Below, one piece after another: positions 874 to 62,352 of a DNA stretch of 64,000 nucleotides. The notes under the pieces were generated by a model, which was not told the DNA's origin, did no database searches, and worked only from the letters and a program-made list of their open reading frames with translations. The translations under genes were made by a program, and so were the position numbers. The stretch's first letter is position 1, and each line of letters begins with the position of its first letter. The DNA comes from Phycisphaerae bacterium (GTDB taxonomy: Bacteria; Planctomycetota; Phycisphaerae; SM23-33): the NCBI GenBank assembly GCA_016929245.1, contig JAFGJE010000233.1, forward strand, positions 1,883 through 65,882, read 5' to 3'.

Positions 874-1938
874 TTATTTCGACATATGTATGTCAGCGGA
901 AACGGGTTTATCTGGTTCGAACATGTTGATCAGGGCGAACGGCACGGTTAATTGCGTGGGAAACGGCAGGGGAGACTCGAAAATCTGGATCAATTGTCGC
1001 ACGGCTGCCATGGCAAGGCGTTCTCCCGACGTGGTAATCAGGGGGTAATTTCCAAGATGATACTTATCGATCAACTCGCGGGTGCTTCCGACGACGATGT
1101 TTCGGCTGTCGATGGGATTCCCGCGCATTTCTATGGCGTGGATGAATGATCTCGCTGTTCGCGCTTCGGGAACCAGGTAAGCGGTCGGAGGATTCGCCTG
1201 GGCCAGGAACGCGTCGGCCGCCGGTTCCCCGCCCGCGAAATCCTTTCCCGCCACGTGGATCCAGTCGGCCTCTGCCGGTAGGGAATGGTTCGCCAGCCCC
1301 AGACGATATCCCTCCAGCCAGAGCGAATAATACAGACCCTCCGGCAGGGTTTCGCAAACGAAACCGATACGCCGATGTCCCTGCTTCACGAGGTATTCGA
1401 CCGCGATTTTCCCCATGGTCAGATAGTCATAATCGACAATGTTTCCCTTGATCTTCGATACATTCGACTCTTTGTGCTGGTAATGCCCGATGGCGACATA
1501 GGGAATCGAACAACTTTCCAGCCAATCGAGAAGATTTTCTTTAACGTATCCCGTCACGATCAGACCGTCCACCCCCTTGGCAAAAGAGGAAACCTTTTCG
1601 CAGGCGTCGTCGGCCTTGTCGGGCTCGAGGGAAGCCATTTCGAATCGCATTCCCTGGGACGAGATATTCGCCGCCATGGTGTTGACGATCGTGGGATACA
1701 CCTCATGATGGTGAATGTTTCCGATCAGAAAAAAACCGATGCGCTTCAGTCCGCAGCGGACACCCGGTAAAGGCCGGACCCGCATCCGCTCCCGGCGGGG
1801 CGTATACCCAAGCTCCCGGCTGATTCGAATGACATCTTTTTTGGTCTTCTTGCTGATATTCGGATGATCCGAAAGGGCCATCGATACCGTGGACACGGAA
1901 CATTTACCTGCTTTGGCGATGTCTTTGAGTGTGATCAT
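874..1938 (-). CDS. LacI-family transcriptional regulator
   Basis: N-terminal HTH MITLKDIAKAGKCSVSTVSMALSDHPNIS followed by a periplasmic-binding-protein-like sugar-binding core. Divergent from the PEP-CTERM gene across an AT-rich promoter region. Confidence 0.85.
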   Translation of the reverse strand: MITLKDIAKAGKCSVSTVSMALSDHPNISKKTKKDVIRISRELGYTPRRERMRVRPLPGVRCGLKRIGFFLIGNIHHHEVYPTIVNTMAANISSQGMRFEMASLEPDKADDACEKVSSFAKGVDGLIVTGYVKENLLDWLESCSIPYVAIGHYQHKESNVSKIKGNIVDYDYLTMGKIAVEYLVKQGHRRIGFVCETLPEGLYYSLWLEGYRLGLANHSLPAEADWIHVAGKDFAGGEPAADAFLAQANPPTAYLVPEARTARSFIHAIEMRGNPIDSRNIVVGSTRELIDKYHLGNYPLITTSGERLAMAAVRQLIQIFESPLPFPTQLTVPFALINMFEPDKPVSADIHMSK

Positions 1939-2232: not shown

Positions 2233-3024
2233 ATGGAAATGGCAAAGAAACTGGCGATGATGGTTCTAACCATTGCGGCCATGAGCGCCTGTGCGAACGC
2301 GACAATGTTGATCAATGAGGATTTCAGTGGTACTGCCGGTGATGCCTTCGATACCACCGGGTGGACGACATGGGCTTTGGGCAATCGTTGGTATACCGAC
2401 AGTTCTCTCGCCGAAAACACCGAGAAGATACTTAGTCTCAAGTATTCCACGAATGGCACGATGGGTCACGCGGGCAGTACGGCAAATCCCGCGGCCATGG
2501 GAATCGTGAATGCCCAGGCTTTCAGCGGAACCGATACAGTCATTACATTTCGGAGCACCCATGATGTCTATGAGTGCGGAGCCATTATTTTCAACTACCA
2601 GGACAAGGACAATTACTACATCTTTGGCGCAAGAAGCATGGATACAGGGATTAACTCCGTGAGTGCCAGCGGGGCCTTATTCCGAAAAGTGGTCGACGGC
2701 ACACCCACCACGATTGCGACGTTTGAAAACCCCCAATGGGACGCCTATGGAGAATTTAAGGGAGTGAATCCGGACGGCGTGACGGTGACGGTCGCGGTGG
2801 ACGGTTCGGATTTCGAATTCAGTATTTCTCGAGCCGACAAGACCACGTTGACCTATACCGCCAGTGATGCGACGTTCGCCAGCGGCGGACAAGCGGGTTT
2901 TATTCTGCAGTCCAAAGTCAACCACAACGTCGCCGATTTATTTACAGTGGTTCCCGAACCGGCGACGATGCTGCTGCTGGCCGGTGGGGCCATGGGTGTG
3001 CTGATTCACAGGAAAGGTCGGTAA
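2233..3024 (+). CDS. PEP-CTERM sorting-domain protein with N-terminal beta-sandwich (lectin/glucanase-like) domain
   Basis: Signal peptide MEMAKKLAMMVLTIAAMSACANA. C-terminus VPEPATMLLLAGGAMGVLIHRKGR is a PEP motif followed by a TM helix and basic tail. AAGGAG Shine-Dalgarno sits 8 nt before the ATG at 2233. The track ORF starts further upstream, at 2158. Confidence 0.8.
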   Translation: MEMAKKLAMMVLTIAAMSACANATMLINEDFSGTAGDAFDTTGWTTWALGNRWYTDSSLAENTEKILSLKYSTNGTMGHAGSTANPAAMGIVNAQAFSGTDTVITFRSTHDVYECGAIIFNYQDKDNYYIFGARSMDTGINSVSASGALFRKVVDGTPTTIATFENPQWDAYGEFKGVNPDGVTVTVAVDGSDFEFSISRADKTTLTYTASDATFASGGQAGFILQSKVNHNVADLFTVVPEPATMLLLAGGAMGVLIHRKGR

Positions 3025-3104
3025 GCGTATAATGTTACTGTAGAGCAACATATCGGACGGCGGCGATTGTGTGTGCGACAACATTTTCTGGTATATCCCT
3101 GAAT

Positions 3105-3227
3105 TGTCATCCTGAGCGTGGCGAGTCTTCGAGCGAAGTCGAAGGATCTTACGCCTGCAAACGTGTGAGATTCTTCGACTTCGTCGCAGGTTCGCCACGC
3201 TCACAAGCGACTCCGCTCAGAATGACA
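3105..3227. repeat. large palindromic repeat element, copy 1 (TGTCATCCTGAGCG ... CGCTCAGAATGACA termini with nested inner hairpin)
   Basis: 14-bp terminal inverted repeats with one mismatch. Inner stem CGAAGTCGAAGGATC / GAGATTCTTCGACTTCG. A related copy lies at 61246-61341. The track ORF 3069-3272 (translation ...CHPERGESS...) is the spurious reading of this element. Confidence 0.6.
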
Positions 3228-3336
3228 ACTATGGGGGCGCCGGAAAAAATTGTCAAACACCGGCGATTTTAATCTGCCGCTGTCCAATGGATATGCGCCT
3301 TGCCAAAAGGACCGGAGCTGACAGAAGAACAAACGA

Positions 3337-4173: not shown

Positions 4174-6657
4174 ATGAAGCGTACATTCTATATTCTTGTC
4201 CTTGTATTGATGGCTTCTTCGCGGGTATGGGCGTTGGAATTCGTGGCCGACGCACAGCCGCGGACGGTGATCGTGATTCCAAACGAGCCGTTGGAAGTGG
4301 TTCAAGCGGCGGCGGAAGAGTTGCAATATCACATTCAAAAGGCGACCGGCGCGACACTGCCCATCGCCAAAGAATCCCAAAAGCCTGAAGCAAAAGGGTA
4401 CGTCTACCTGGGCTCAACCCAGGCGGCGAAGCAGGCGGCCTTGCTGAAAAGATTCAAGCCGAATGCATTTGTCATCAAAACCGCCGGCGATACCCTCTAT
4501 ATCGCCGGCGATGATTCCGCGGGAAAAGTGTTTGGTCTTTTAAGCGCCAACACTACCCGCGTTGGTACGCTCCTGGGAGTGTATGAATTTCTGGAAACAA
4601 AACTCGGGGTTCGCTGGCTGTGGCCGGGTGAAGTCGGAGAAGTAATTCCTCACAGAGAAACGATTCGCGTGGAGGACTTTATGCAAACCGGCGGAACCAG
4701 ACTCATAAACAGCCGTTTTAGAGACGGAAGGAACATGAATCTGAAAGCCGGCTGGACAAACGACGCCAATCGACTCAAGTTTCTGAACGAGCAGAGCCGT
4801 TGGCTGCGCCGCCATCGTTTCGCCATCGTCGAGGACGACACCAGTGGACACGCCTATACTCGTTATTGGAAAAGGTTCGGCATAACACATCCGGAATATT
4901 TCAATCAGCTTCCGGACGGTACAAGAAGGCCGGAGGGGTATAGCGGCAATATTTCCATGTGTGTTTCTCAGCCGAAGCTCTGGAAGCAAATCGTGCGGCA
5001 GTGGCGGCAGAGTCGCCAAAAAGGTTCGGCGCGGCGCTCTTTGCTTTGTATTGCGGAAAATGATACGTCGGGCAAATGCACCTGCCCGAATTGTATGGCC
5101 TGGGATGCGCCAGATCCCGATCTGAAATTCCCTTATCACCAGAGGCTGGAGCGGGCCCGTAAGGCATTCATGGAAAAAGACCCCGATTGGGTGAAATATC
5201 TTGGTTCCTTGTCCGACCGATACGCGAAGTTTTATTTGGAGGTCCAAAAGGAGGCAAGGAAATATGATCCGAAGATCAAGGTTCTCGCCTATGCCTACGG
5301 GAATTATCGAAAACCGCCCATCAAAACCAAACTAAATGACGGTATTATCATCAAGAATGTTCCAGGAATAAGTTTTTCCGCGCCGGCAGAAACCTGGACG
5401 AAGTTTCAGGACAATTGGAAGGACTGGCGTCAAACCGGATGCATTCAGGTTCTTCGGCCGAATTACACGCTTACCGGCCATAATATGCCTATAAACTACG
5501 CGAAAACATTCGGGAAACACTTCGCATTCGTCGCCCGAGAAGGGCTGTATGGAACGGACTTTGATTCGTTGACCGGCCAATATGCCGCTCAGGGATTATC
5601 CCTGTATACCATCGCTCGGATGAACCATCGCCCGGATTTGCCCGTCGAGGCGATCCTGAAGGAGTATTATGACGGCTTCGGGCCCGCGGCAGATGCGATT
5701 AAAGCCTATTGGGATTTCTGGCAGGATCTACCCCGGGAATTAACCTCGACAAAGAGAAATGCGATCCGCGCCAGAAAGAAGATTCCCCATTCGCAATGGC
5801 GTCAAACGTACTGGCGGAAATTTGTGCTTTTCACGCCGGAGCTTTTTACGCCCGAACGATTCGAGCTGGGCTATGCGTTATTGGAAAAAGCCCGGACCGC
5901 CGCGGGCGAGGATAAACGGGTTCTGGCGAAAATCGACTTTCTGAAAAAAGGTCTCCGTCACGCGGAATTGACCGTGCAGGCGCAGAAGGCGGTGGATCAA
6001 TATCAATATTTCAAAACCGGCGATATTCACTCGATCGTAGCGGCCGTGAAACAACTGGACGCCTACCGCCGCCGGATCGAACACCATGGCATTTCCAACA
6101 TGGGGCTTCTTCGTGCCTCGGAAGCATTGTTCTGGCCTTTCGCGGACATCGAAGTCGCCGAGAAATCCGCCAAGCCGTTGCCCGAAGTCTGGAAGTTCAA
6201 ATGGGACCCGGAGGATCAGGGTTTACAAGACGGCTGGGCGGCCAGGGAATATGACGACGAGGTGTGGGATTCCATACGTACGGATGCACCCTGGGAGTTA
6301 CAGCCCATCGGGGAGGCCTGGAAGCGCGCCCACGGACAGGACTATGATGGTTACGCCTGGTACAGAACTTCGTTCACAATCGAGCCTGGTGAGTCTTCGG
6401 ATCGCAAGCGAAAGGTCTTTCTTATTTTCGGAGCGGTGGACGAAGCCTGCGTGATTTGGGTAAACGGACAGAAGGTATTAGACAGGCCGTTTCCCTATCA
6501 GGACAACCGGAACTCCTGGCGGGAGCCGTTTACGGTGGAGATCACCCCATATGTTGTCGCCGGCGAAAACAGCCTAGCCGTTCGCGTGGAAGACCGCGGC
6601 GGGCAGGGTGGAATTTTCAAGCCGGTCTGGTTGTCCGTGATGAATGAAGGCAAATAA
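4174..6657 (+). CDS. secreted 827-aa glycoside-hydrolase-like protein with C-terminal galactose-binding-like jelly-roll domain (GH2 sugar-binding-domain type)
   Basis: Signal peptide MKRTFYILVLVLMASSRVWA. Cys cluster CTCPNCMAWD. C-terminal YDGYAWYRTSF...VFLIFGAVDEACVIWVNGQKV resembles the jelly-roll sugar-binding domain of family-2 beta-galactosidases. The N-terminal catalytic family is not assignable by eye. Confidence 0.65.
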   Translation: MKRTFYILVLVLMASSRVWALEFVADAQPRTVIVIPNEPLEVVQAAAEELQYHIQKATGATLPIAKESQKPEAKGYVYLGSTQAAKQAALLKRFKPNAFVIKTAGDTLYIAGDDSAGKVFGLLSANTTRVGTLLGVYEFLETKLGVRWLWPGEVGEVIPHRETIRVEDFMQTGGTRLINSRFRDGRNMNLKAGWTNDANRLKFLNEQSRWLRRHRFAIVEDDTSGHAYTRYWKRFGITHPEYFNQLPDGTRRPEGYSGNISMCVSQPKLWKQIVRQWRQSRQKGSARRSLLCIAENDTSGKCTCPNCMAWDAPDPDLKFPYHQRLERARKAFMEKDPDWVKYLGSLSDRYAKFYLEVQKEARKYDPKIKVLAYAYGNYRKPPIKTKLNDGIIIKNVPGISFSAPAETWTKFQDNWKDWRQTGCIQVLRPNYTLTGHNMPINYAKTFGKHFAFVAREGLYGTDFDSLTGQYAAQGLSLYTIARMNHRPDLPVEAILKEYYDGFGPAADAIKAYWDFWQDLPRELTSTKRNAIRARKKIPHSQWRQTYWRKFVLFTPELFTPERFELGYALLEKARTAAGEDKRVLAKIDFLKKGLRHAELTVQAQKAVDQYQYFKTGDIHSIVAAVKQLDAYRRRIEHHGISNMGLLRASEALFWPFADIEVAEKSAKPLPEVWKFKWDPEDQGLQDGWAAREYDDEVWDSIRTDAPWELQPIGEAWKRAHGQDYDGYAWYRTSFTIEPGESSDRKRKVFLIFGAVDEACVIWVNGQKVLDRPFPYQDNRNSWREPFTVEITPYVVAGENSLAVRVEDRGGQGGIFKPVWLSVMNEGK

Positions 6658-18737: not shown

Positions 18738-19556
18738 GTGGAATGGGTGGTACAACTCGGCGCCGGTGCTGTCCGGTGGCTGGACGATTTCGGGGCGTTC
18801 TGCCGGTTCTGCGGCCGTACGTTCGCCTGGATCGCCGCGGTCGTTTCGTCTCGACGGGGGTGGCGGGAGATTCTCTACCAGTTTTACCAGGTGGGAACGC
18901 GCTCCGTACCGGTGGTGATGGTCACGGGAGTGTTCGTTGGGGCGGTATTGGCGGTCCAGTCGGTACAGCAATTTAAAGCCATCGGCATGATCAGCCAGAT
19001 GGGCGCGATCGTGAACCTTTCGGTGCTTCGGGAACTCGGGCCGATCCTCGCGGGACTCGTGCTGGCCGGGCGCGTCGGCGGCGGGCAGACCGCGGAGCTG
19101 GGCACGATGCGCGTCACGGAACAGATCGAAGCCTTACGCGCCATCGGCGCCGACCCGATCCGCGTCCTGGTCGTGCCGCGTTTCCTCGCGTGCGTGCTGC
19201 TGATCCCGGTTCTGACGCTGTACGCGAGTTTCATGGGCATCCTGGGCGGATACATCGTCAGCGTGCACCTCTACGGCGCCAACGGCGCGGAATTCTGGTC
19301 CATCGCCGCCCGGAGCGTGCTGATTTCGGATGTTTTCTACGGGCCGATCAAATGCCTGTTCTTCGGCGGGGCGACCAGCCTGATCTGCTGTTACAAGGGA
19401 TTCACCTGTCAGCCTGGCGCCGCCGGCGTGGGACGGGCCTGCACCGAAAGCTTCGTCGCCAGCTGCATGGCGATCATCACGCTGGACTTCTTCCTCGGCA
19501 TGACGCTCAATACGATCATCATGATCCTCTGGGGCGTACAGATTGTGCTGGTGTAA
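18738..19556 (+). CDS. mlaE: MlaE-family ABC transporter permease (phospholipid/lipid-asymmetry maintenance)
   Basis: ...EILYQFYQVGTRSVPVVMVTGVFVGAVLAVQS...RVTEQIEALRAIGADPIRVLVVPRFLA... is the diagnostic MlaE/Ttg2B permease sequence. AAGGAA ribosome-binding site. Confidence 0.9.
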   Translation: MEWVVQLGAGAVRWLDDFGAFCRFCGRTFAWIAAVVSSRRGWREILYQFYQVGTRSVPVVMVTGVFVGAVLAVQSVQQFKAIGMISQMGAIVNLSVLRELGPILAGLVLAGRVGGGQTAELGTMRVTEQIEALRAIGADPIRVLVVPRFLACVLLIPVLTLYASFMGILGGYIVSVHLYGANGAEFWSIAARSVLISDVFYGPIKCLFFGGATSLICCYKGFTCQPGAAGVGRACTESFVASCMAIITLDFFLGMTLNTIIMILWGVQIVLV

Positions 19557-19558
19557 TC

Positions 19559-19822
19559 GTGATCAAACCCATCGAAAACTGGCTGGAACGTCATAAGAAT
19601 CCCACGAGCTTCTGGCTTCACATGATCGGGATTCCCGCGTGTTTTGTCGTGACACCCGTGTTGCTGTTCCTGCGACAATGGTGGCTGGCGGCGGTAATGT
19701 TCGTCGGCGGGTACATCCTGCAATTCCTCGGCCATCTCATCGAGGGAAACCGCTCCGGCGAAGAACTGTTCCTGCGCCGCATTCTGGGACGAGAACGAAA
19801 TCCCACCCGAAAAATAAACTGA
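19559..19822 (+). CDS. DUF962 (Mpo1-like) small membrane protein
   Basis: GTG start 3 nt after the mlaE stop. (M)IKPIENWLERHKNPTSFWLHMIGIPACFVVTPVLLF... matches the DUF962 N-terminal signature (W..H.NP.N...H..GIP). The upstream part of track ORF 19190-19822 overlaps mlaE out of frame and is rejected. Confidence 0.6.
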   Translation: MIKPIENWLERHKNPTSFWLHMIGIPACFVVTPVLLFLRQWWLAAVMFVGGYILQFLGHLIEGNRSGEELFLRRILGRERNPTRKIN

Positions 19823-20082
19823 CGTTTTCCTCCCACAGGAAAAATAGGCGATCCACCGTTTGGGAGTATTTCTTAATAACGCTTCCTGTCCGCAACATTA
19901 TCGGACTAAATCGAATCGTCTCTCCCTGGAAATATCCATAACCACTTTATATAAAAAGACATGCGCCTATCTCTTTTGTTTTCAGGAATATAGGGGTTCT
20001 TCGAGCGACCCCATACGCCGCAAATCGCTTAAATACATGTAAATAAAAAAGTTAAAAAAATTTTAATCTTTGGTTCCTTTCA

Positions 20083-20111
20083 TTGACAGGAAGGAATCCG
20101 GTCTGTATACT
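20083..20111 (+). promoter_or_regulatory. consensus sigma70-type promoter TTGACA-N17-TATACT preceded by an A/T-rich UP-like tract
   Basis: TTGACA at 20083-20088, 17-bp spacer, TATACT at 20106-20111. Upstream AAATAAAAAAGTTAAAAAAATTTTAATC tract. No protein-coding gene follows. Confidence 0.5.
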
Positions 20112-20117
20112 GCGCCA

Positions 20118-20239
20118 TTCGGTCGCTGGGTAAAACTCAACATTCTCGCTCAGGTGCATACTGAGCGTTTCAAAATCGGCTGTTTATCTAGCCGTGGCAG
20201 TCTCCGGCTCGCAGTTTCTGTGGGTCGGAGATTTTTTTT
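20118..20239 (+). ncRNA. candidate ~120-nt small RNA (promoter-to-terminator transcription unit, no credible ORF)
   Basis: The predicted transcription start (~20118) to the terminator U-tract (20239) encloses an internal hairpin GCTCAGgtgcataCTGAGC. The track ORF 20070-20267 runs through the terminator. It lies between convergent protein genes. Confidence 0.4.
20201..20239 (+). terminator. Rho-independent terminator (UCUCCG-N18-CGGAGA stem followed by U8)
   Basis: TCTCCGgctcgcagtttctgtgggTCGGAGA followed by TTTTTTTT, read directly from the sequence. Confidence 0.55.
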
Positions 20240-20537
20240 CATTCCATGTGATTTTGATATCCCGTGATATAGCAAATCGCTATGAACGCTCAGGAAGCAA
20301 CGATTGATTCCGTCAACCTTAACGCCCTTTCCTCCCCGGTTCTTTTTCGAGACGACGCCACGACGGCGTATCGGGATCGACGGCGGTGCTGTTTCGTTCT
20401 CCTTCCAACGAAGTCGGTGCACCGATCCGCGATCCTGGCGTGACGAAGGCGTTCTTACCCTGGGGCGGACGTCCTGTCCTGGAGCGATGAACTCTAAATC
20501 TGGTCCTGGCCGACGGCGGAATAATACGCGTTTCCGT

Positions 20538-22280
20538 TCACGCCAGCACGGCTTGGAGCGCCTGTGAGACCGACGCCAGCTCGAAGGGTTTCTGGAGATA
20601 CCCCGCGAGGGCGGCATCGGAGAACCGTTCAGCCGCGACTTCCCGGCTGTATCCGGAACACAGGATCACGCGCGCATCGGGCCTGACGTTCCGCAAGGCT
20701 TCCAGCGTGTCCTGTCCGTCCATCGCCGGCATGGACATATCCAGCAGGACGGCGAGAATTTCGTCTTTCCGTCGCGCGAATTGCTCCAGCGCTTCCGGGC
20801 CGTTGTTCGCGAGGATGGTGTCGAAGCCCAGCCGCTGGAGCATCATGTCGGCTACCCCCAACACGGACGGTTCATCGTCCACGACCATCACGAGTCCCCG
20901 TCCTTTCCATAATGTCGCTTTCCCGTTGGTGTCTTCGCGGGGAGTTTCCACCTTGTCGTCGCAAGCGGGCAGATACAGACGGAAGGAGGTTCCCACCCCC
21001 GGTGAGCTTTGAACCCGGATCGCGCCTTTATGGGCGCGAACGATTCCCAGGACGGCCGAGAGACCTAATCCCCGCCCCGTGAATTTCGTCGTGAAAAACG
21101 GTTCAAACATTTTCGTGAGGGTATCCGCGTCCATCCCAATACCCGTATCGGAAACCTCCAGCGTGACGTATTGTCCCTCATCCAGGTGTTCGCCGAGATA
21201 CATCTGGTGAATTTCTTCTCGCGAAAGGTCTTCGACATCGGTGCGAATATGGATGAAACCGGAGTTGTTTCCGACGGCTTCGGAGGCGTTGGTGATCAGA
21301 TTCATCAGCACCTGGCGGAGTTGCGTCATGTCGGCGCGGACGGCGGGAAGACGGTTCGTCAACTGATACCGCAACTGGGCCTTTCGCGTGACGCTGGTCC
21401 ACAGCAGCGAGGCCGTCTCGGAAATGAGTTTGTTCAGGTGAACCGGCTGAATATGGAACTGGGCTTTTCCGGCGTAAGCGAGCATCTGCTTGGTCAGTTC
21501 CGTCGCGCGAAGGGCGCAATTTCGGATGGACTCGACGCACTCCCGGGTGGGGGTCGTTTCGGGCAGGTCCCGCAGCGCCAGATCGGCGTTGCCCAGCACG
21601 CCCACGAGAAGATTGTTGAAGTCGTGCGCGATCCCGCCGGCCAACACCCCCAGACTCTGGAGTTTTTCCGTGTCCCGGAGATGTTCTTCGAACAGTTCCC
21701 GTTCCTGTTCATCCCGTTTTCGCTCGGTGATGTCCGAACCGACGCCGCACAATCCGATCGGGTTGCCCCTTTCATCGCGCATGATCCAGGTGTGACAATC
21801 GACGAATTTCTCCTGGCCGTCGGAACAACGATTCACCACCTCGCCGTGCCACGTGCCTTTGTCCAGCGTCTCCCGAATCATTTCCTTCTGCGTGGCGCCG
21901 CGAGACGGATCGCAGCCGTAGATGTCCACCGTCTTGCCGATCAATTCTTCGCGCGCGTATTTGAAAAACTCCACGGCGGCGTCGTTGACATAGGTGATGC
22001 GTCCCTCGAGATCCGTCGCCGTGATGGTGTCCCGGATGTGGTTGAGGATCAAGGACTGCAGGCGGAGTTTTTCGTCGGCATCGTGAAGTTCCCGCGTGAG
22101 ACGCTGAAGCGCTTCCCGCACGTTCCTCGGGGGGGAACCGATCTTGTGGAACGTTTCGTCCAGAACATCCAGAAAGGATGGGGATGGACTGTGGTTCCGT
22201 TCCGCGTCCTCCGTGAACAACGCCGTCGCGTACTCATCCGATGAGTGGCGACTCCGGGCGGAGGATTCCTCAATCGCCAT
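20538..22280 (-). CDS. hybrid sensor histidine kinase / response regulator (PAS - HisKA - HATPase_c - REC)
   Basis: PAS region ...AVEFFKYAREELIGKTVDIYG.... H-box GIAHDFNNLL. G-boxes ...DTGIGMD...GRGLGLSAV.... C-terminal receiver ...VMVVDDEP...LLDMSMPAMDG.... Confidence 0.9.
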   Translation of the reverse strand: MAIEESSARSRHSSDEYATALFTEDAERNHSPSPSFLDVLDETFHKIGSPPRNVREALQRLTRELHDADEKLRLQSLILNHIRDTITATDLEGRITYVNDAAVEFFKYAREELIGKTVDIYGCDPSRGATQKEMIRETLDKGTWHGEVVNRCSDGQEKFVDCHTWIMRDERGNPIGLCGVGSDITERKRDEQERELFEEHLRDTEKLQSLGVLAGGIAHDFNNLLVGVLGNADLALRDLPETTPTRECVESIRNCALRATELTKQMLAYAGKAQFHIQPVHLNKLISETASLLWTSVTRKAQLRYQLTNRLPAVRADMTQLRQVLMNLITNASEAVGNNSGFIHIRTDVEDLSREEIHQMYLGEHLDEGQYVTLEVSDTGIGMDADTLTKMFEPFFTTKFTGRGLGLSAVLGIVRAHKGAIRVQSSPGVGTSFRLYLPACDDKVETPREDTNGKATLWKGRGLVMVVDDEPSVLGVADMMLQRLGFDTILANNGPEALEQFARRKDEILAVLLDMSMPAMDGQDTLEALRNVRPDARVILCSGYSREVAAERFSDAALAGYLQKPFELASVSQALQAVLA

Positions 22281-39435: not shown

Positions 39436-39509
39436 ACCCCGGTAGCTCAGCAGGATAGAGCATCGGTTTCCTAAACCGAAGGTCAGAGGTTCGAGTCCTC
39501 TCCGGGGTA
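39436..39509 (+). tRNA. tRNA-Arg (anticodon CCT)
   Basis: Cloverleaf folded by hand. Acceptor ACCCCGG/CCGGGGT, D-arm GCTC/GAGC, anticodon stem TCGGT/ACCGA with loop TTCCTAA, T-arm AGAGG-TTCGAGT-CCTCT, discriminator A. CCA is not encoded. Confidence 0.9.
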
Positions 39510-50574: not shown

Positions 50575-51081
50575 AAAGAGGAAAATATTATTTTTCAGTC
50601 AACAGGTGTTGAAATGTGCGCAAAAAAAAGGCGACCCAGGTACAGCGGGATCGCCCTCTATTGAAAAAACCGCCTCGCGGGACGGGTTATTGCGGATGGG
50701 GAACGGAAAAGCGCCTTTCGGCGCGCAGTGGTACAGAAAAACGAAACCGTCCTATGTTCAGGGATTCAACCGCCTTCGGTACAACCAACTCTCACCGCCG
50801 GTGCGCCCTCCATAGCCGGTGTCCCTTTCGCCTCCAGAATCAAAAATCGCACGACTGCCCAACGTTTGTGCAATGCAACGGAGAACTCATTATACGCCAA
50901 AAGGGGATTTTGTCAAGGGAACTCATGCAATTCCTCGGAAATGTTCGATAGAAATACGGTAGGGTATCCGCGCCGTTCTCGGCCGGCGGAGGCCTTGTGT
51001 CGTGAATGAACGAGTATTCCGGTTTTGCGCGACGGGTGAGAAAATTCTCGCGCCGGACTGGACTTTTCCCGAAAGCGTGGT

Positions 51082-62178: not shown

Positions 62179-62218
62179 GTTTAGGAAACCGATGCTCTAT
62201 CCTGCTGAGCTACCGGGG
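62179..62218 (-). pseudogene. partial inverted copy of the tRNA-Arg(CCT) 5' half (positions ~2-41)
   Basis: The reverse complement reads CCCCGGTAGCTCAGCAGGATAGAGCATCGGTTTCCTAAAC. This is 40/40 identical to the tRNA at 39436 up to the anticodon stem, then diverges. Confidence 0.6.
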
Positions 62219-62352
62219 CGGGTTTCTTCGTAACAATATGTTGAAGCAAGAAAGATACCACGATCTGACGGGAAATTACATCAGGAAAATCCTGCCGGCC
62301 GGTTTATGACTCTAGTAAAGATCAAATCGTAACGGGAAATGGGGAATTACAG

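Follow-up and report, generated by a model that had tools for sequence, protein, structure and literature searches.

Spot 42, RyhB and MicF are examples of trans-encoded small regulatory RNAs (sRNAs) of Enterobacteria, whose intergenic genes form stand-alone units. These RNAs are about 90–120 nt long, are transcribed from their own sigma-70 promoter and contain two to three hairpins and accessible single-stranded regions. Each ends in a Rho-independent terminator that has a long U tail, is devoid of an open reading frame (ORF) and is conserved within a limited lineage only. A further type is represented by DapZ and MicL, which are associated with the 3′ UTR of an upstream gene; these sRNAs possess their own promoter and share the terminator with the upstream mRNA. 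In the literature searched, no description of sRNAs in Phycisphaerae or other Planctomycetes was found.

Here, we analysed a stretch of 64,000 nucleotides (the window) from the metagenome-assembled genome of an uncultured Phycisphaerae bacterium, in which an earlier note had described a candidate free-standing sRNA of about 120 nt. The analysis supports this description, as the unit possesses its own promoter and terminator, would yield an RNA of 123 nt and is conserved among relatives, with compensatory changes in its stems (Table 1). Judged from the sequence, it is very probably a real conserved RNA gene. In addition, the gene, the expression of which is predicted, probably founds a new family of small non-coding RNAs so far restricted to one subclade of uncultured Phycisphaerae. 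Similar to Spot 42, RyhB and MicF, this is a stand-alone unit with its own promoter, hairpins, accessible stretches and a terminator with a U tail, and it carries no ORF. Unlike these RNAs, it belongs to a different phylum and shows no similarity to Rfam families, and its strongest conservation falls on a paired stem-loop beside the terminator instead of on an obvious single-stranded seed.

Table 1. Coordinates of the unit, its parts, its neighbours and its homologues. Positions are those of the window unless another source is given.
Feature	Source	Coordinates	Strand	Remark
mlaE	window	18738–19556	+	precedes mpo1
mpo1, Mpo1-like (DUF962)	window	19559–19822	+	Pfam; conserved same-strand neighbour upstream
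A/T-rich upstream tract (UP-element-like)	window	20040–20082	+	contains TTAAAAAAAT at 20052–20061; sequence and alignment
−35 hexamer TTGACA	window	20083–20088	+	invariant in 5/5 members
−10 hexamer TATACT	window	20106–20111	+	17-nt spacer after −35; promoter with 11/12 consensus matches
GC-rich discriminator GCGCC	window	20112–20116	+	GCGCG in relatives; sequence and alignment
Predicted transcript, 123 nt	window	20117–20239	+	start A20117 inferred, 6 nt after −10
P1, 5′ strand GUCG	window	20122–20125	+	pairs with UGGC 20195–20198; possible long-range stem
Small 5′ hairpin UGGGU-AAA-ACUCA	window	20127–20139	+	fold; candidate, only weak 3-bp counterparts in relatives
Central hairpin P2, CGCUCAG-GUGCAUA-CUGAGCG	window	20147–20167	+	hairpin of the earlier note; conserved pairing
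C/A-rich single-stranded linker UUUCAAAAU	window	20168–20176	+	predicted accessible, unpaired probability >0.9
SL3, CGGCUG-UUUAUC-UAGCCG	window	20177–20194	+	most conserved part of the RNA
P1, 3′ strand UGGC	window	20195–20198	+	pairs with GUCG 20122–20125
Intrinsic terminator	window	20199–20239	+	fold; 16-bp stem 20199–20233 (8/16 G-C), 3-nt loop, U8 20232–20239
Window-specific spacer	window	20240–20537		similarity to relatives ends at 20240
Hybrid PAS histidine kinase gene, convergent	window	20538–22280	−	downstream of the unit in the window
L166, full unit	Logan SRR27370448	4555–4684
L168, full unit	JGI 3300023203	701–840
L170, full unit	JGI 3300056875	654–777
L169, partial unit	JGI 3300063170	1265–1333		cut by contig end; promoter and 5′ 69 nt

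The unit lies in a 715-nt A/T-rich spacer with a GC content of 0.37–0.51, compared with about 0.6 in the genes. The histidine kinase and the Mpo1-like protein encoded on either side have identical counterparts among NCBI proteins, which occur on a single contig; the genome is the one that carries protein MBN1556064.1. In the window, this spacer is indeed a gap between convergent genes, as the earlier note had stated. However, this arrangement does not extend to L166, L168 and L170, where the next gene after the unit encodes a HAD hydrolase and is co-directional.

The reported promoter, in which TTGACA and TATACT are separated by 17 nt and preceded by an A/T tract, is exact to the base (20083–20111) and conserved in all five members of the family. 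Located about 60 nt upstream in the conserved promoter, TTAAAAAAAT is invariant in the window, L166, L168 and L170, and differs by one base in L169, and TGTATACTGCGC of the −10 region is invariant in all five members. The predicted start nucleotide is a purine in every member. In E. coli, rrn (stable-RNA) promoters contain a GC-rich discriminator and an A/T tract, and by analogy the promoter of this unit appears to resemble them. Transcription from A20117 would be carried out by the housekeeping sigma factor.

The RNA appears to have a promoter of its own that is of the same class as the tRNA promoters of the clade. Upstream of the relatives' tRNA genes, TTGnnn-16/17-TATACT is found at a fixed short distance; among the scored tRNA promoters with at least 9/12 matches, 10 of 16 use TATACT as the −10 hexamer, with a TTGnnn −35 hexamer 16–17 nt upstream. 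Since this motif is shared with the relatives' tRNA promoters, it probably marks working promoters in the clade, and the combination of TATACT and TTGnnn is taken as the clade-typical strong promoter of this Phycisphaerae group. tRNA promoters of the TATACT type are present in loci L006, L009, L010, L020, L083, L087, L124, L131, L148 and L162, and TTGACA-TATACT also occurs ahead of a protein gene in L171. In the poorly conserved spacer between mpo1 and the promoter, the motif (T)GTTATCGGAC(C)AAAAT is situated at 19895–19911 of the window and at matching positions of L166, L169 and L170. A second motif, GAAATGT-N4-GAATC, is common to the four relatives and absent from the window. Either motif could be a putative regulator binding site.

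At the other end of the unit, the strong intrinsic terminator with its eight U residues lies exactly where it had been reported and is kept in the four full members (the window, L166, L168 and L170). Its hairpin alone folds at −24.5 kcal/mol (z = −7.4), and all 16 pairs are formed in each of these members, with two pairs changed on both sides and five on one side. The RNA would end, as the terminator itself predicts, within the U tract 20232–20239, which would give it a defined 3′ end. The window contains three promoters with at least 11/12 matches, compared with 0.15 expected, and eight strong terminators, compared with 1.9 expected. Moreover, two promoter-to-terminator pairs within 40–350 nt were found, versus none in 60 dinucleotide shuffles; such a pair is therefore not expected by chance.

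Two other places in the window carry related signals. On the minus strand at 50620–50916, a second free-standing unit shows a perfect TTGACA-16-TATAAT promoter (12/12) and three successive terminator-like hairpins with T runs within about 300 nt, antisense to its two plus-strand neighbours. Its RNA is not more structured than shuffled sequences (z = +1.8) and has no Rfam match, and the unit contains GGAGG followed by a 15-codon ORF (MEGAPAVRVGCTEGG). At 3005–3240, an 11/12 promoter (TTCACA-17-TATAAT) at the end of a protein gene precedes a long inverted repeat, TGTCATCCTGAGCG ... CGCTCAGAATGACA. Here, the C-terminus of the upstream protein is putatively PEP-CTERM-like and the N-terminus of the downstream product putatively prepilin-like, as read by eye from the translations.

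The predicted 123-nt transcript contains no AUG. A single ORF of 65 codons (20070–20267) spans the unit and, together with the position of the locus at a synteny breakpoint, might speak for a small-protein gene or for a chance or relic promoter-terminator pair without function. However, this ORF starts before the predicted transcript, reads through the terminator and lacks a coding GC3 pattern. A search of 1.84 billion representative proteins returned no real homologue of it; the only database match of the ORF is an artefact of summed repeats, with a BLASTP E value of 42 per stretch. Furthermore, the full members measure 123 nt in the window and 130, 140 and 124 nt in the relatives, and these differences of 7, 17 and 1 nt exclude a shared reading frame, since such indels break any frame. 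The absence of a plausible ORF, as claimed in the earlier note, was hence borne out on each of these points. A functionless relic is at odds with conservation above that of neutral sites and with compensatory changes. Combined, these observations make both a small-protein gene and a functionless pair very improbable.

The proposed Rfam check was run with Rfam 15 at gathering and permissive thresholds on the window, a 141-nt stretch and the four homologous loci, and no family was matched. Nothing on the unit scored above 13.5 bits, and the best scores were well below every gathering score.

Homologues were found by way of the closest Mpo1-like proteins in a collection of 5.8 billion protein clusters, and then on the contigs of these relatives. 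Related contigs from Phycisphaerae carry four homologous units in synteny, all of them metagenome-derived like the window itself, in agreement with the conservation that was to be checked. A single-sequence covariance model (R1) matches L166 at 4566–4683 (72 bits), L168 at 715–840 (71 bits) and L170 at 654–777 (65 bits), with E values of about 1e-13, and R1 together with a four-sequence model (R3) matches the homologues at 65–132 bits. By blastn, the 3′ 65–69 nt are 91–93% identical in L166 and L168. Each homologue is situated downstream of mlaE-mpo1 on the same strand, and the distance from the mpo1 stop codon to the 77-nt promoter region amounts to 213–217 nt in all five members.

The close relatives L001, L083/L164 and L171 lack the unit; in them, the corresponding slot is occupied by an inverted repeat followed by a convergent gene, by tRNA-Asp and by a protein gene, respectively. 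The unit is likewise absent from the remaining 160-odd related loci when these are searched with R3. Because of this absence from other relatives, the unit marks a small Phycisphaerae subclade. Searches by blastn, nhmmer and covariance model gave no match in 80 MlaE-anchored loci from GTDB species-representative genomes or in 80 Mpo1-anchored loci from JGI metagenomes, nor was the unit found in three loci carrying orthologues of the kinase (L081, L082 and L163; 61–65% identity). When metagenomes and viral contigs were scanned for exact copies of the 21-mer of P2, no match was returned either; this 21-mer is the wrong probe, because P2 is specific to the window in sequence. The conserved 25-mer had no exact match in viral contigs.

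The family consists of four full sequences and one partial sequence, L169. In alignment A9, which was registered by module and by hand and therefore leans towards structure, all 134 of the 134 cells belonging to 34 proposed pairs are standard pairs, and in seven of the 34 pairs, five of them in P2 and two in the terminator, both partners have changed. These values were not reached in any of 500 column shuffles, and when the partners were slid by 1–3 columns as a control, only 34–46% remained paired. A plain MAFFT alignment misaligns P2, while the three other helices are 100% paired there. The compensatory stem changes for which the earlier note had suggested looking are thus present, with P2 remaining paired despite its different sequence. 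P1 and SL3 show one-sided changes and no double changes, so that their pairing is unproven.

At the level of sequence, the 3′ module is 85–92% identical between members, compared with 76–81% for the mpo1 coding sequence, 48–66% for the fourfold degenerate sites of mpo1 and 55–67% for the remaining spacer from mpo1 to the unit in global alignment. Across the four full sequences, both sequence and structure appear to be conserved beyond neutral expectation. Taken as a whole, the alignments show that the unit is under purifying selection, with pairing kept by compensatory change.

For the 123-nt RNA, the predicted folding energy is −50.4 kcal/mol (z = −6.9); taken alone, the first 83 nt from the 5′ end reach z = −2.9 (6 of 1000 shuffles). 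The 5′ end reads GUUCAGUC in the window and (G/A)UUC(A/G)GUC in the members. P1 is formed by 4/4 pairs in all four full members, with one change from G-U to A-U. P2, the perfect hairpin highlighted in the earlier note, is present and its pairing is kept: it is fully paired (6–8 bp) in all five members despite different sequences, with loops of 4–9 nt and five of eight pairs changed on both sides. However, P2 is the least sequence-conserved part of the RNA, and the conserved core consists of the 3′ stem-loop and the terminator.

The linker between P2 and SL3 follows a CAA...AU pattern common to the members. Hfq-dependent sRNAs have a terminator hairpin with a long U tail and an A/U-rich site; in this respect, the U8 tail and the linker UUUCAAAAU can be read from the sequence of the unit. 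SL3 is invariant in four members except for a switch from G-U to G-C at the loop-closing pair, giving the consensus CGGCUG-UUUAUC-YAGCCG, which is joined directly to the terminator; the segment AUCGGCUGUUUAUC(U/C)AGCCGUGGCA is nearly invariant among the members. The invariance of both stem and loop would fit either a protein-binding site or a site of loop-based pairing. Besides the linker, accessibility (unpaired probability above 0.9) is predicted for the first five nucleotides of the RNA, for ACAUUCU and for the loops of P2 and SL3.

In L166, L168 and L170, the same-strand HAD-family gene begins 78–97 nt beyond the terminator. The unit could therefore be imagined as a cis-regulatory leader, a riboswitch or attenuator that controls read-through into this gene, the window then carrying a copy stranded after gene loss. 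The order of promoter, structured RNA of about 80 nt and terminator, with a co-directional gene next in three relatives, is indeed that of terminator-type leaders. However, such leaders contain an antiterminator. When the 3′ strand of the terminator was blocked to search for one, no competing fold appeared; the only alternative was a 4+4-bp structure of about 2 kcal/mol, against 24.5 kcal/mol for the terminator. Moreover, a separate promoter-like motif, TTGCAA-17-TAAGGT, is conserved between the terminator and the HAD start. It is followed by GGTCTGCTSCT and located at 4717–4746 in L166, about 893–922 in L168 and 818–847 in L170, and it probably represents the HAD gene's own promoter with a very short leader, as far as its sequence indicates.

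The window itself contains no plus-strand gene downstream of the unit, and the unit persists intact there although neither a HAD gene nor a remnant of one is found in the 64 kb. No Rfam riboswitch match was obtained either. Since the unit is intact without the HAD gene and an antiterminator is lacking, a role as HAD leader is unlikely, and the leader reading was rejected. In this respect the earlier statement that the unit is neither a leader nor a 3′ UTR holds. For the 3′ UTR, however, gene arrangement alone is insufficient, because the unit is co-directional with mlaE-mpo1.

As is characteristic of a 3′-UTR-type sRNA, the unit lies downstream of a conserved operon on the same strand with no terminator in between, and it holds the only recognisable terminator after mlaE-mpo1, as no other plus-strand terminator is found between 19822 and 20199. 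In this it resembles DapZ and MicL. It differs from them in that its promoter is situated about 260 nt past the stop codon in an A/T-rich spacer and not within coding sequence, and in that terminator sharing is inferred. These features, together with the constant distance from mpo1, could also mean that the unit is mainly the 3′ end of the mlaE-mpo1 operon, i.e., a stability or termination element of the 3′ UTR to which the internal promoter is secondary. Against this, the promoter is conserved in full, including the A/T tract, the −35 hexamer, the spacer length, the −10 hexamer, the discriminator and the start purine, whereas little conservation is seen elsewhere in the spacer that follows mpo1. 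A mainly 3′ UTR element therefore seems improbable. The two readings are compatible, however, and both RNAs could share one terminator, so that the unit may double as the terminator of mlaE-mpo1.

In several relatives, tRNA-Val, tRNA-Asp or tRNA-Leu is located downstream of mpo1 on the same strand, most of them with the same promoter type. The sRNA unit shares with these tRNA units (e.g., tRNA-Val-TAC after mpo1) the slot, the promoter class, the short distance from −10 to the RNA and a hairpin directly after. In addition, the minimum-energy fold of the window RNA is a cloverleaf-like four-way junction, which is given by only 2–3% of shuffles. A tRNA-like RNA or a decayed tRNA gene, with the 5′ 77 nt as the cloverleaf, was therefore considered and rejected. 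ARAGORN was negative at its default, 95, 90 and 80% thresholds, no Rfam tRNA match was obtained even on the 141-nt stretch, and a model built from 13 tRNA-Val genes of relatives (R2) matches nothing on the plus strand of the unit. T-loop and D-loop signatures are missing on reading the sequence, no significant alignment to the tRNA units extends beyond the promoter hexamers, where homology is confined to the consensus, and L166 and L168 do not adopt the cloverleaf topology in their minimum-energy folds. We therefore regard a tRNA origin as extremely improbable.

The tRNA slot shows further peculiarities of its own. In L083 (1562–1850; the same sequence in L164 and L165), tRNA-Asp follows mpo1, and about 150 nt further on there is a duplicate of its 3′ end (GCGAATCCCGTCGGCCCCGTTCA), which resembles the attachment-site repeat that an integrating element leaves behind. 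L087 and L088 share an identical spacer and tRNA-Val, followed by wholly different DNA; L087 runs into an ORF that could, as a guess, encode an integrase. This divergence after tRNA-Val suggests an integration hot spot at the tRNA position behind mpo1, in keeping with the break in synteny observed in the window. Elsewhere in the window, the 5′ portion of the tRNA-Arg(CCU) gene (39436–39509, plus strand) recurs as a perfect 40-nt copy at 62180–62219 on the minus strand, about 22.7 kb away and inverted. The copy spans the acceptor strand, the D arm and most of the anticodon arm, and probably marks a tRNA-associated rearrangement.

Downstream of the unit, the 298 nt at 20240–20537 contain no protein homologue and no Pfam domain, and they show no similarity to the downstream DNA or HAD gene of the relatives; a pseudogene or small gene at this place was rejected on these grounds. 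A perfect 10-nt direct repeat, GCAAATCGCT, flanks the promoter-sRNA-terminator unit at 20020–20029 and 20272–20281. Its left copy is within the region alignable to the relatives and its right copy just beyond the end of homology. Such a repeat is approximately at chance level in 1 kb, and it is possibly microhomology at a rearrangement junction. A mobile-element origin of the unit was rejected, as neither phages nor plasmids showed similarity to it and the window contains it only once.

For the sRNA reading, a mechanism can be proposed in which transcription would start at A20117 and end in the U tract, so that the RNA would be made independently of its neighbours and act in trans. The C/A-rich linker and the invariant SL3 loop would bind mRNA or protein, and the terminator hairpin with its U tail would give the RNA stability. 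We consider a trans-acting regulatory role a tentative assignment, with a chance slightly short of even. Predicted duplex energies with 50 gene starts of the window were not above those of shuffled controls, and the same was true for the mlaE, mpo1 and HAD starts of the members. Alternatively, the unit may encode a compact structured RNA and not a simple base-pairing sRNA. In that case, P1 would close a junction of several helices, and the invariant SL3 would recognise a protein or a small molecule. Expression would come from a promoter of the stable-RNA type with its GC-rich discriminator, and co-inheritance with the Mla lipid-transport genes would reflect a role in regulating envelope or lipid homeostasis in Phycisphaerae. 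This appears rather unlikely.

As a small non-coding RNA gene, the unit can serve in several ways. The conserved sequence ATCGGCTGTTTATCYAGCCGTGGCA (a 25-mer) together with model R3 provides a family probe for metatranscriptomes. The unit is also a natural example of a strong promoter and terminator in this clade, which can help both annotation and the design of genetic tools in Planctomycetota. On present evidence the finding overturns no concept and reveals no surprising mechanism; its value lies in a new RNA family and an entry point, giving initial access to post-transcriptional regulation in a phylum whose members are difficult to cultivate.
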